Source: Paracoccaceae bacterium (lineage in GTDB: Bacteria; Pseudomonadota; Alphaproteobacteria; Rhodobacterales; Rhodobacteraceae). Taken from it: a stretch of 64,000 bases of DNA. Positions 3,447 through 6,677 of the stretch are shown here, piece by piece (positions within the stretch are counted from its first letter, which is position 1; each line of letters starts with the position of its first letter). The stretch is taken from positions 4,475-68,474 of the forward strand of contig JACONK010000026.1 in NCBI GenBank assembly GCA_014323795.1, given 5' to 3'. The notes below the pieces were generated by a model. That model saw only the letters and a program-made list of their open reading frames with translations, had not been told where the DNA came from and did not search any database. The position numbers and the translations under genes are program-made.

Positions 3447-3473
3447 GACAAACCGTTCCGGTCAAAAATGTAA

Positions 3474-3496
3474 AACGGCACCCGAAGGGTGCCGTT
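3474..3496. terminator. Hairpin terminator between convergent uvrD and DUF1127 genes
   Basis: AACGGCACCC-GAA-GGGTGCCGTT perfect 10-bp stem; T-rich tail on the minus strand. Confidence 0.75.
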
Positions 3497-3518
3497 CCAG
3501 GCAAACTGGTGCTTCAGA

Positions 3519-3734
3519 TCAGGCCGATTCGGCGGCTTGTCTGGAGACACGCTTGATATCGTGGCGCGCAATGCCCAGGTCCCGCAGTTCCCGGTCAGAC
3601 AGGCGCGACAGTTCTTTCACTGTGGTGAGGTAGATGCGGCGTTGCCTTATGTAGGCGACCAGGGCAGTAAGTACATTCGAAAAAACTGCGGTCACTGTGG
3701 CGCGTTGTGTTGAGCTGGTGTTCAGGATTGACAT
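3519..3734 (-). CDS. DUF1127 (YjiS-like) small protein
   Basis: RQRR...ELSRLSDRELRDLGIARHDI signature; GAGGA RBS. Confidence 0.9.
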   Translation of the reverse strand: MSILNTSSTQRATVTAVFSNVLTALVAYIRQRRIYLTTVKELSRLSDRELRDLGIARHDIKRVSRQAAESA

Positions 3735-3782
3735 TGGATTATCCTCTTGAAAGTTGGTTTTCCGTGTTCATCGGATATCCTG

Positions 3783-3847
3783 AAGATAGGCAAACCCCCG
3801 GTCAGATGTAGGTATATTTCGGCATTTCTGTTATGCGTCTGACGCAT
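3783..3847 (-). promoter_or_regulatory. Putative DUF1127 promoter: LysR-type dyad ATGC-N7-GCAT (3833-3847) and -10-like CCTATCTT (3790-3783)
   Basis: T-N11-A dyad; same two elements at nearly the same spacing recur at 4020-4085. Confidence 0.6.
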
Positions 3848-3875: not shown

Positions 3876-4013
3876 AAAAGAAAAGCGGTAGTGCAGGGAG
3901 GGTGCACTACCGCTTCAATCAATCAGATACGCATGTGGGAGGAAGTAAGCGCAGCTGATTTTCAGCCACTGTGGCGGATCATCCTGGTACGTCGGATGAT
4001 CCGTGGCTTTCCT
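3876..4013 (-). ncRNA. Candidate trans-acting sRNA: three hairpins, anti-SD loops (CUUCCUCCC, CCCUCCC), intrinsic terminator
   Basis: Stems at 3964-4008, 3921-3960 and a perfect 13-bp stem 3883-3915 followed by UUUUCUUUU; upstream promoter-like elements. Confidence 0.6.
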
Positions 4014-4019
4014 GAACCC

Positions 4020-4089
4020 AAGATAGGATTGCCGCGCTGCAGCAACAATCGCAAAGGTCACAAGTCAGATATGCGTTAAAAGCATATCT
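4020..4089 (-). promoter_or_regulatory. Putative sRNA promoter: dyad AGATATGC-N7-GCATATCT (4067-4089), TTGTTG-17-TATCTT
   Basis: 8-bp perfect dyad centred ~65 bp upstream of the inferred start; -10 CCTATCTT at 4027-4020. Confidence 0.55.
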
Positions 4090-4124: not shown

Positions 4125-4808
4125 TCAGATCGGTTTGCCGATCAGAAATGCCCGGGCCGCGGCACTGACCGGGCCTTCAAAGAAAGCGGCTGCCGGGGCA
4201 CTGTCGCACAACTGGCCTTTTGAGAAAAACAGAATTTGGTGTGCGATCCGGCAGGCCAGTGCAAGGTCGTGGGTGGACATCAGAATCGGCACCCGCATGC
4301 TGCAGGAGACGATGGCAGCCTCGATCTTTGCCGCGCTGGCCGGATCGAGCCCGGCAAAGGGTTCATCAAGGATCAGGACTTGTGGTTCGGTCACCAGGGC
4401 CCGTGCGAACGCCATGCGCCGCATCTCGCCGCCGGACAGGGTGGCGGCCGGGCTTTGTGCCTTGTGGGCAAGCTGCATATCGGCCAGCACCCCGTCGATC
4501 AGGTTCGAATCAGGGTGCGTCAGCGGATAGGCCACATTGGCCCGCACCGTGCGCCGCAGAACCACTGTCTGCTGATGCATATAGCTGCGGGTCGATTTGT
4601 TGGCCACAGCCGGCACCCCGTCCCATGTGACTGTTCCGGTTTCCGGCCGGGCAATCCCGTGGGCAAGCGCCAGGAACAGTGATTTTCCCGCCCCGTTGGG
4701 CCCCAGGATGCAGGTGATGCCGGACAGCGTGGCCTCATGACGGATCGGCCCCAGAAACGGTTGACCTTCCACAGCCAGTGCCGCGTCGGAAACCGAAAAG
4801 ACCGGCAT
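4125..4808 (-). CDS. tupC: Tungstate-type ABC transporter ATP-binding subunit
   Basis: GPNGAGKS, LSGGE, LILDEP; TGATG overlap with the upstream permease stop. Confidence 0.75.
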   Translation of the reverse strand: MPVFSVSDAALAVEGQPFLGPIRHEATLSGITCILGPNGAGKSLFLALAHGIARPETGTVTWDGVPAVANKSTRSYMHQQTVVLRRTVRANVAYPLTHPDSNLIDGVLADMQLAHKAQSPAATLSGGEMRRMAFARALVTEPQVLILDEPFAGLDPASAAKIEAAIVSCSMRVPILMSTHDLALACRIAHQILFFSKGQLCDSAPAAAFFEGPVSAAARAFLIGKPI

Positions 4809-5506
4809 CAACGGGTCACCTGATAGCATTCGCCCAGTCGGGATATCTTGTGGGTGATTGCGTTCACCGCAATCGAGATGGTGACAAGGATCAGCCCCAG
4901 CGCGAGTGCGAGCGTCAGATTGCCCCTGGACGTCTCCAGCGCGATTGTTGTCGTCATCACACGCGTCTGCCCGTTGATGTTGCCGCCCACGATGATGACC
5001 GCGCCAACCTCCGCCAGTGCGCGGCCAAAGCCTGCCAGCAGGGCGATGGAGACGGCAAAACGGGCATCCCGGATCAGGGTGCGCACCTGCTTGCCCCGCG
5101 ATGTATCGAGTGCTGCGAAAAGCGGCTTGTATTCGCGGGCAAGGGGCGCAATCGCCTGATGGGTCAGCGACAGGATAATCGGAAAGACGAGGATTGTCTG
5201 CGCAATCACCATGGCTGTCGGTGTGAACAGCAGCCCAAAACTGCCGAGCGGCCCGGCACGGGATAACAGCAGGTAGACCGCCAGCCCCACCACCACCGGA
5301 GGCAGTGCCATCATGGCGGTGCCCAAAACCAAAAGCACCCGATGCCCGGGGCAGCGCGTGATCGCAAGAAGGGTGCCAAGAGGTGTGGCCAAAAGGGCGG
5401 ACAGGACAGTTGCGCTACATGAGACGAACAGGCTCAGCCGCACGATCCGCGCAAGTTCCGCATCGCCTGAAAAGATCAGCCCCAAGGCCGTTGCAAGAAT
5501 TTCCAT
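4808..5506 (-). CDS. tupB: Tungstate-type ABC transporter permease
   Basis: MALPPVVVGL, FGRALAEVGAVIIVGGNI, TRVMTTTIALETSRG motifs. Confidence 0.85.
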   Translation of the reverse strand: MEILATALGLIFSGDAELARIVRLSLFVSCSATVLSALLATPLGTLLAITRCPGHRVLLVLGTAMMALPPVVVGLAVYLLLSRAGPLGSFGLLFTPTAMVIAQTILVFPIILSLTHQAIAPLAREYKPLFAALDTSRGKQVRTLIRDARFAVSIALLAGFGRALAEVGAVIIVGGNINGQTRVMTTTIALETSRGNLTLALALGLILVTISIAVNAITHKISRLGECYQVTR

Positions 5507-5597: not shown

Positions 5598-6677
5598 GTG
5601 GCAATCACAGAGGAAGCGGTAAAACAGGCACTGGCGATGCTGAAACTGCCTGACGGGCGCGACATCGTCAGTGCTGATGTCATACGCGCCCTGTCGATTG
5701 ATGGCGGCTCTGTCCGCTTTGTACTGGAGGTGCCCCCGAAACTCGGCCCGCATCTGGAACCTGTCCGTAAGGCGGCTGAAAAGATCGTGGAAGACCTCGA
5801 CGGGGTGGATAATGCCCGCGTCCTTCTTACTGCCCATTCTGAACTGCCCAAAACACCTCCGAAGAAGGCACCACCCGATTTGCGGATCGGCGGCCATCCG
5901 CACCCGGCGGCAAACAGGGCACCGATTGCAGGGGTGAAACGCATCATCGCGATCGCCAGCGGCAAGGGGGGCGTGGGTAAATCAACGGTTTCCTCAAACC
6001 TCGCTGTTGCCCTCGCGCGGGCGGGCGTACGCGTGGGGCTGCTTGATGCAGATATCTACGGGCCCTCGCAGCCGCGCATGATGGGTGTGTCTGCACGTCC
6101 GGCCTCCCCTGATGGCAAGACGATTATTCCCCTCAAATCTCACGGGGTGACCATGATGTCCATTGGCCTGATGCTGGAGGAAGACCAGGCGGTTGTCTGG
6201 CGCGGGCCCATGCTGATGGGTGCCCTGCAGCAGATGCTGGGCCAGGTGCAGTGGGGTGTGCTCGATGTGCTGCTCGTGGACCTGCCGCCCGGCACCGGTG
6301 ACGTGCAACTGACGCTGAGCCAGAAGGCGGAGGTGACAGGTGCCATCGTGGTATCCACACCGCAGGATATCGCTCTTCTTGACGTGCGCAAGGCACTCGA
6401 TATGTTTGCCAAAACCGGGGTGCCGATCATCGGGATGATCGAAAACATGTCAACATTCTGCTGCCCCAAATGCGGACACGAGGAACCGCTGTTCGGCCAC
6501 GGCGGTGCCAGGGCGGAGGCGGCGCGTCTGGGCATCGGATTCCTGGGCGAAATTCCCCTTAGCCTGGACATCCGGGTCGCCGGCGATAGCGGCAAACCCA
6601 TCGCGCTGACGGATCGTCCGCCGGGGCAGGCCTATGCAGTGATCACGCAGGATCTGATCGCCAAGGGCCTTGTATGA
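5598..6677 (+). CDS. mrp: Mrp/NBP35 Fe-S cluster carrier ATPase (ApbC)
   Basis: [37 protein letters not shown]. Confidence 0.93.

Follow-up and report, generated by a model that had tools for sequence, protein, structure and literature searches.

A stretch of 64,000 nucleotides from a Paracoccaceae bacterium (GenBank assembly GCA_014323795.1, contig JACONK010000026.1, positions 4,475 to 68,474 of the forward strand; called the window below) very probably contains, on its minus strand, the gene of a trans-acting small RNA (sRNA) of about 138 nt. This RNA would belong to the cuckoo superfamily (CcsR/NfeR1/ar14), would have its own promoter and terminator, and would be co-activated with the neighbouring DUF1127 gene by a LysR-type transcriptional regulator (LTTR). 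Its place is a 390-nt minus-strand gap between the gene for the ATPase of an ATP-binding cassette (ABC) transporter and the DUF1127 gene, in which three adjacent hairpins (HP1, HP2 and HP3) are found; the DUF1127 start codon follows 142 nt downstream of the RNA on the same strand (Table 1).

The site is recognised by a covariance model, termed R1, that was built from nine aligned upstream RNAs of relatives and their RNAalifold two-hairpin consensus, with the window sequence left out. R1 has one match in the window (3967–3874, 45.6 bits, E 8.3e-10), in the syntenic position, and the same site is its one match in the whole 2.58-Mb genome. Since a model trained on other genomes matches only there, the site is more than a product of chance; the sRNA is single-copy and therefore not a dispersed repeat. 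The order of ABC-ATPase, sRNA, DUF1127 and a convergent uvrD gene is kept across the genus and in several other Rhodobacteraceae genera. The R1 match and this synteny bear out a preliminary description, made from the letters of the window alone, which had suggested an unannotated sRNA in a tandem module with a DUF1127 gene downstream, the latter now identified by its Pfam match.

Table 1. Positions of the sRNA, its promoter and the neighbouring features in the window
Feature	Position	Strand	Description and basis
Predicted sRNA transcript	3876..4013	(-)	about 138 nt; motif-less 5' hairpin, two anti-Shine–Dalgarno (anti-SD) hairpins, U-tail; fold, R1 and sub-threshold ar14
HP1	3964..4008	(-)	45 nt; 15-bp interrupted stem; loop GACGUACCA
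HP2, first anti-SD hairpin	3921..3960	(-)	40 nt; two stacked helices, 6 + 5 bp; loop UUACUUCCUCCCACAU
HP3, second anti-SD hairpin and intrinsic terminator	3876..3916	(-)	hairpin 3916-3882, 35 nt; 14-bp stem; terminator scan
LTTR-type box, sRNA promoter	4071..4085	(-)	ATGCTTTTAACGCAT (T-N11-A); -72 to -58 from predicted start
sRNA core promoter, inferred	4020..4048	(-)	-35-like TTGTTG 4048-4043; 17-nt spacer; -10-like TATCTT 4025-4020
DUF1127 promoter	3783..3847	(-)	box ATGCGTCAGACGCAT 3847-3833; -35-like CTACAT 3811-3806; 17-nt spacer; -10-like TATCTT 3788-3783
DUF1127 gene	3519..3734	(-)	71 aa, CcaF1-like small protein; Pfam PF06568, E 8.7e-12
Plain intrinsic terminator 3' of DUF1127 gene	3471..3499	(-)	terminator scan
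ABC-transporter ATPase, upstream neighbour	4125..4829	(-)	generic ATPase; synteny kept in relatives
ABC permease, TupB/ModB-like	4808-5506	(-)	NF041773 160 bits vs cut-off 320; ABC_perm1 above own cut-off

Structure and conservation of the RNA

The arms of HP1 read AGCCAC-GGATCATCC and GGATGATCC..GTGGCT as DNA, and AGCCAC-GGAUCAUCC and GGAUGAUCC-GCCACA-GUGGCU as RNA; on reading the sequence, no anti-SD motif is found in its loop. The 16-nt loop of HP2 (3948–3933) has the core CUUCCUCCC at 3945–3937, while HP3 has the loop CCCUCCC (3902–3896) and the tail UUUUCUUUU (3884–3876), the 14 pairs given to its stem by the terminator scan being 13 perfect ones and a closing G-U/A-U. The linkers between the hairpins are 3 and 4 nt long and the stems comprise 15, 11 and 14 pairs. 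All three hairpins are reproduced when positions 4020–3870 are folded with RNAfold (−65.8 kcal/mol), against a mean of −37.9 ± 3.7 kcal/mol for dinucleotide shuffles (z = −7.5), and none of the 200 shuffles folds as well. The three minus-strand hairpins described earlier at 4013–3876, with the perfect 13-bp stem and CCCUCCC loop of HP3, are thus present as described; the anti-SD loops that had been ascribed to them are seen in HP2 and HP3, both of which carry a C-rich loop, but not in HP1.

The structure is maintained by compensatory change. In a model-guided alignment of 44 distinct homologous sequences 94.2% of cells are paired and 18 of the 20 pairs have changed on both sides, figures to be read with the proviso that fitting this alignment to the model raises the paired percentages. 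None of 500 shuffles reaches the observed values, and sliding the partners by 1–3 columns lowers pairing to 32–64%. All eight model pairs of the HP2 helix show compensatory changes across relatives, as do 10 of the 12 pairs of HP3 (98.7% of cells paired), and three HP3 pairs differ by compensatory changes when the window is compared with the commonest sequence of the relatives. In an independent MAFFT alignment 8 of the 12 HP3 pairs still show such changes. An alignment by MAFFT and RNAalifold that included the window recovered only HP3, because HP2 was out of register, and was superseded by the relatives-only model. At the uvrD–DUF1127 loci, where the preliminary description had looked to covariation for an answer, structure and synteny are therefore both conserved.

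How far the primary sequence has diverged is clear from a blastn search of the 161-nt region against 300 genomes, one for each genus of the family, in which only the window itself matched; a structure-aware search was therefore required. At the gathering threshold no Rfam family matches in the window, so that an Rfam search of the kind envisaged earlier names no family outright, and the best sub-threshold family is ar14 (RF02344), found in E-value mode at 3963–3880 (35.5 bits, E 9.5e-5 in a 1-kb search). In this match HP2 corresponds to the first hairpin of the model and HP3 to the third, the 35 positions in the middle of the model being deleted. R1, by comparison, has matches in 46 of the 56 genomes of the genus, commonly two of them about 430 nt apart with the DUF1127 gene in between, and, under strict filters, in 115 of 300 genera of the family; homologues of the DUF1127 gene itself occur in 19 of 41 related genomes. 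Some of the members found by R1 carry the full ACCUCCUCCC motif (for example at loci L010, L014 and L118), which links the window RNA to the canonical cuckoo RNAs.

A scan for hairpins with C-rich loops, made on the DUF1127 loci of the same genus, revealed two arrangements. In the first, classical arrays of three to four two-hairpin units lie downstream of the DUF1127 gene (L007–L011); in the second, an sRNA of two to four hairpins lies about 130–160 nt upstream of it, often with another unit downstream (L012, L014–L029). Five loci (L007, L008, L009, L011 and L013) are of the CcaF1 type, with a 76-aa DUF1127 gene followed immediately by a second DUF1127-like open reading frame (ORF) and then by a tandem series of three to four CcsR-like units, each of two hairpins, with UCGUUCCUCCCAGAUC and ACCUCCUCCC loops. 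No such classical CcsR-like array is present in the window's genome, and no 3' cuckoo RNA follows its DUF1127 gene, R1 having no second match in the 2.58 Mb.

Five relatives (L109–L112 and L123) have exactly the layout of the window, a motif-less 5' hairpin followed by two anti-SD hairpins, and the ..GGCUGAA junction after HP1 is conserved in relatives. HP1 thus belongs to the conserved structure of the RNA and is no stray palindrome; it is probably a protective stem-loop that stabilises the 5' end. A role of HP1 as terminator of the ABC operon was ruled out, because it lacks a following U-run and its position is downstream of the predicted start.

The same data bear on the proposal that the region is a gene for a small protein, or else a cluster of chance or repeat palindromes. 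Two frames are indeed open across it, of 48 aa (4061–3915) and 66 aa (3922–3722), but both are short and unconserved, and the first begins upstream of the predicted transcription start. Primary sequence is unconserved even within the genus while pairing is kept by compensatory changes, and the site is single-copy where a repeat would not be, so that we consider either form of the proposal extremely improbable; the earlier statement that no credible ORF covers the region is upheld.

Two predicted promoters with one box, and rival accounts of transcription

The predicted start of the sRNA is near A4013. A weak −35 element combined with a T-N11-A palindrome near −65 is the classical form of a LysR-type-activated promoter, and, as in NfeR1, an arrangement with the box at −65 and a spacer of 17 nt suits a sigma-70 promoter that depends on an activator. 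With its 3' extension (4074–4062) the box reads GCAT-ATC-TG-ACT-T, matching the published VtlR/LsrB box of Brucella and Agrobacterium, GCAT-N3-TG-N3-T, which is found before abcR sRNAs and small DUF1127 genes (PMC7486931). The DUF1127 gene would form a second transcription unit with a near-identical promoter layout, its predicted start lying near 3776 and its box at −71 to −57. The same box stands upstream of nearly every 5' sRNA of the genus at a fixed distance, and the layout of box, 21–22 nt, hexamer, 17 nt and TAnnnT recurs in relatives. Across 16 loci aligned from the sRNA terminator to the DUF1127 start, the conserved elements are CATGC-N7-GCATAnCGGnnnTG, about 10 nt, CTACTC, 17 nt and TAtnT. 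The earlier claim that the RNA has a promoter and terminator of its own agrees with these promoter-like elements, with the conserved box at its fixed distance and with HP3, which the terminator scan calls. As to other promoter types, the −10 region of the sRNA, CCTATCTT, resembles the heat-shock-type CYTATNT; an RpoH-type −35 element (CTTG, 4064–4061) was ruled out because 33 nt separate it from the −10.

The simple palindrome ATGC-N7-GCAT occurs 39 times in the genome, about the level expected by chance, and is therefore uninformative alone; it was replaced by a weight matrix of 28 nt, made from 49 distinct boxes of other genomes of the genus and applied to both strands (5.2 million positions). 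Genome-wide, a site on contig C1 ranks first (29.6 bits), followed by the promoters of the DUF1127 gene (28.6) and of the sRNA (24.1); the next site has 18.8 bits.

This fourth site lies on contig C37 (position 32978, minus), about 85 nt upstream of a second DUF1127 gene and in the opposite orientation to it. That gene, at 1314–1522 of locus L001, is followed by two weak hairpins (1501–1602), of which the second has a GGCCUCCA loop and a U-tail; R1 leaves them unmatched, and their score on ar14 is 28.8 bits. At the window locus, the sRNA box is itself part of a longer perfect inverted repeat, AGATATGC-TTTTAAC-GCATATCT (4068–4088, minus strand), which would form an 8-bp hairpin, with no U-run after it, in a read-through transcript of the ABC operon. 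In other genera the box (20–31 bits) adjoins the DUF1127/cuckoo module in 11 of 12 loci (L127–L137), the commonest order being box, DUF1127 and 3' sRNA, so that the box accompanies the module throughout the family, regardless of how the sRNA is oriented.

That the box and the −35/−10 layout stand between the ATPase stop codon and HP1, conserved at a fixed distance in dozens of genomes, makes it very unlikely that the hairpins are only the 3' untranslated region (UTR) and terminator of the ABC-transporter operon, from whose mRNA an sRNA would be cut by processing. This layout also serves the DUF1127 gene and an unlinked sRNA, the sRNA box is among the three best matrix matches of the genome, and three hairpins with conserved C-rich loops exceed what termination needs. 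The 3' UTR account draws on the terminator scan, which finds no intrinsic terminator between the ATPase stop codon (4125) and HP3, on the ATPase gene being the conserved upstream neighbour in most relatives, and on the frequency in this group of 3'-UTR-derived sRNAs, CcsR included (PMC8034643, PMC8625941).

A second rival account takes the element for the structured 5' leader of the DUF1127 mRNA, in which HP3 would be an attenuator and the sRNA a by-product of read-through from 4013. The shared strand and the short distance to the start codon suit it, and attenuation of an S. meliloti DUF1127 gene is reported in the accessible part of a preprint (bioRxiv 10.1101/2025.01.31.635925); we judge it very unlikely, given the strength of HP3 as a terminator (14 bp with a U-tail), the presence between HP3 and the gene of a second promoter, complete, conserved and equipped with a box, and the absence of any alternative anti-terminator pairing from the RNAfold structure. 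The sRNA would accordingly be an independent unit, transcribed from its own promoter and ended by HP3, beside which some read-through from the ABC operon, or into DUF1127, may occur.

A candidate LsrB-like regulator

In Rhizobiales the gene of the LTTR LsrB directly follows trxB (PMC11975290), and the LTTRs found in this position in two Rhizobiaceae genomes served as queries. Their best match in the window's genome, at C1:119299–120288, is 41% identical over 301 residues (E 4e-79), the next LTTR reaching only 31% over partial length. In the reverse search the trxB-linked LTTR is best in both Rhizobiaceae genomes, with 266 and 265 bits against 143 and 153 for the next best, so that the C1 protein is the reciprocal best match of trxB-linked LsrB. 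A single copy of the LsrB-like gene is found in 118 of 120 genera within the family, with identities mostly of 57–72%.

Directly downstream of this gene on contig C1 lies the best box of the genome (ATGCATGGAATGCAT-GGC-TG-GTA-T). The module occupies positions 1307–1470 of locus L142 on the minus strand, the LTTR gene 2489–1497. After the box come TTGATC-N16-TATATG and then a candidate sRNA, about 85 nt long, that has CUCCCACAG and CUCCCUGUUGGAC motifs as well as a terminator. Rfam matches it, below threshold, to SorY (46.4 bits against a threshold of 111) and SorX (35.3 bits against 46.6). In other genera, at least 15 of 30, the LTTR gene is likewise followed by the box and a ACCUCCCUGUUGGAC sRNA. 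The C1 LsrB/VtlR-like LTTR is, from these sequence features, the most likely reader of the box, mainly because the layout mirrors the lsrB/vtlR–abcR adjacency of Rhizobiales.

The trxB gene of this genome lies on contig C18 (locus L139, 3670–5416), where its pairing with a divergent Lrp/AsnC-type regulator is conserved with Rhizobiaceae (L141). In the place of lsrB after trxB there are about 690 nt without a credible gene, followed by a convergent, unrelated LTTR; this LTTR was ruled out as LsrB, the LsrB-like gene lying elsewhere (C1).

Known systems, proposed mechanism and significance

The closest known counterpart in organisation is NfeR1 (Smr14C) of Sinorhizobium meliloti, founder of the ar14 family, in place of the AbcR-type RNAs with which a comparison had first been drawn. 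Like NfeR1, the window RNA would have an independent gene with a sigma-70-type promoter, N17-(C)TATCTT here and N17-CTATAT in NfeR1, and each has a box of LTTR type, placed here at −72 to −58, counted from the predicted start, and at −72 to −57, with the sequence TGCA-N6-GCAT, in NfeR1, where it is bound by LsrB and indispensable for transcription (PMC10746234). Both likewise have a three-hairpin body with C-rich anti-SD loops and an intrinsic terminator, and lie upstream of a DUF1127 gene (PMC10746234, PMC8034643). They differ in host family, Rhodobacteraceae against Rhizobiaceae, and in the loops, for NfeR1 has the full CCUCCUCCC in all three, whereas the loops of the window RNA have no motif, CUUCCUCCC and CCCUCCC.

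The second system is that of CcsR1–4 (RSs0680a–d) with CcaF1 (RSP_6037) in Rhodobacter sphaeroides, a host of the same family as the window. Here too, two-hairpin anti-SD modules adjoin a 71-aa DUF1127 gene (the CIN1 neighbourhood). The CcsR RNAs are cut by RNase E from the 3' UTR carried by the ccaF1 mRNA, which has an RpoHI/HII promoter, whereas the window RNA is single and upstream, with its own predicted promoter, an LTTR-type box and an extra 5' hairpin, and a plain terminator follows its DUF1127 gene.

Strict definitions of cuckoo RNAs fit only in part. The matcher of Reinkensmeier and Giegerich (2015), as far as the accessible text describes it, asks for adjacent hairpins of 24–50 nt, variable in sequence, with linkers of at most 10 nt and stems of at least 6 bp, and for a loop of 9–27 nt with a cuckoo motif (CCUCCUCCC or an accepted variant) in every hairpin (PMC4615179). 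By the same text, the window RNA conforms in number (2–4), size, stems and linkers of its hairpins, but not in its loops: that of HP2 has 16 nt and agrees with the motif in 8 of 9 positions, that of HP3 has 7 nt and a truncated motif, and HP1 has none. The CIN1 context, an adjacent orthologous DUF1127 gene, is present and is conserved in relatives. As R1 and synteny tie the window RNA to ACCUCCUCCC-bearing orthologues despite the failed strict definitions, we file it, on sequence and structure, as a divergent member of the cuckoo superfamily.

Its upstream position with its own promoter, which had been presented as distinctive, is confirmed here and is not new, because CIN1 cuckoo RNAs 5' of DUF1127 genes have been described before, for Sinorhizobium NfeR1 and for Sulfitobacter. 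The link between cuckoo RNAs and DUF1127 genes (CIN1) has been defined since 2015 (PMC4615179), and a description of both orientations, with cuckoo RNAs flanking the gene in Sulfitobacter, followed in 2021 (PMC8034643). Many genomes of the window's genus resemble Sulfitobacter in having RNAs on both sides.

The third comparison is with the LsrB/VtlR regulon of Rhizobiales, which contains AbcR1/2, NfeR1 and small DUF1127 proteins such as Atu1667 and BAB1_0914. Here as there, the box precedes an anti-SD sRNA and DUF1127, and an sRNA gene adjoins the regulator gene (PMC7486931, PMC10746234). The defining pattern of the box, TGCN-N6-GCAT about 60–70 bp upstream of the start, is matched by ATGCTTTTAACGCAT relative to the predicted start.

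Several points weigh against the sRNA–DUF1127–LsrB reading, besides those credited to the 3' UTR and leader accounts and the alignment effect given with the covariation figures. The window RNA falls short of the ar14 gathering threshold of 58.8 bits. Its promoter hexamers are weak, and a generic sigma-70 scan did not call the promoter because of the weak −35. The regulatory strength of the loops is uncertain, since that of HP3 has only 7 nt and the motifs are shortened. The candidate regulator, unlike LsrB of Rhizobiales, is in no operon with trxB, the genome having no LTTR in such an operon, and is only 41–42% identical to Rhizobiaceae LsrB, a protein that has been described as unique to Rhizobiales (PMC11975290). 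Regulation may also differ between lineages, given the RpoHI/HII promoter of CcsR in R. sphaeroides.

We propose that the C-rich loops of the sRNA, CUUCCUCCC in HP2 and CCCUCCC in HP3, would pair with the Shine–Dalgarno regions of target mRNAs. Anti-SD seeds match most ribosome-binding sites. By analogy with related RNAs, such pairing would block translation initiation of several mRNAs and probably speed their decay. NfeR1 silences ABC-transporter binding-protein mRNAs and ntrB, and CcsR1–4 act on C1 and pyruvate metabolism. On the Hfq dependence that had earlier been thought probable, known relatives differ, NfeR1 being Hfq-independent (PMC10746234) while RSs0680a binds Hfq; the window's genome encodes an Hfq on contig C35 with 52% identity to that of E. 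coli, and the predicted RNA ends in a terminator with a U-tail. The T-N11-A box near −65 in both promoters would most likely be read by the C1 LTTR, and with one box and one regulator, production of the RNA and of the small protein would be induced jointly. By its likeness to CcaF1 (PMC8034643), the DUF1127 protein may be RNA-binding and may influence how stable or how active the sRNA is.

The kind of sRNA and its placement by a DUF1127 gene are already known, so that the annotation is good and the element type is not new. What is added is an sRNA gene with predicted ends, promoter and terminator, overlooked by standard annotation at the Rfam gathering threshold, together with the observation that cuckoo RNAs with shortened motifs and a motif-less 5' hairpin exist in Rhodobacteraceae and escape both the ar14 model and the published matcher. 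The family-wide LsrB-type box and LsrB-like regulator in Rhodobacteraceae go beyond the literature that was searched.

In Rhizobiales, LsrB/VtlR activates anti-SD sRNAs along with small DUF1127 proteins. The same box precedes the sRNA, the DUF1127 gene and the LsrB-adjacent sRNA here and recurs across the family, which suggests that the sRNA–DUF1127–LsrB circuit of rhizobia, Agrobacterium and Brucella is older and broader than stated. The stronger proposal, that the LsrB/VtlR circuit extends beyond Rhizobiales, with a single-copy LsrB-like regulator in almost every Rhodobacteraceae genus serving a compact regulon through the −65 box, is in our estimate evenly balanced between being right and wrong. 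If it is true, the regulon in this genome would comprise only three or four promoters, those of a SorY/AbcR-like sRNA beside the regulator, the cuckoo sRNA and the DUF1127 gene among them, and the sRNA and DUF1127 would represent a single ancient module made up of two units, each with a box to itself. Such a compact three-promoter system would lend itself to asking what DUF1127 proteins do for their partner sRNAs.

The label tupC, given earlier to the upstream neighbour, is only approximate: the permease resembles TupB/ModB without reaching the NCBIfam cut-off, and the ATPase is of a generic kind. A substrate-binding protein gene is not adjacent to the permease and ATPase genes; beyond them, a divergent Mrp/ApbC-like gene begins at 5598.

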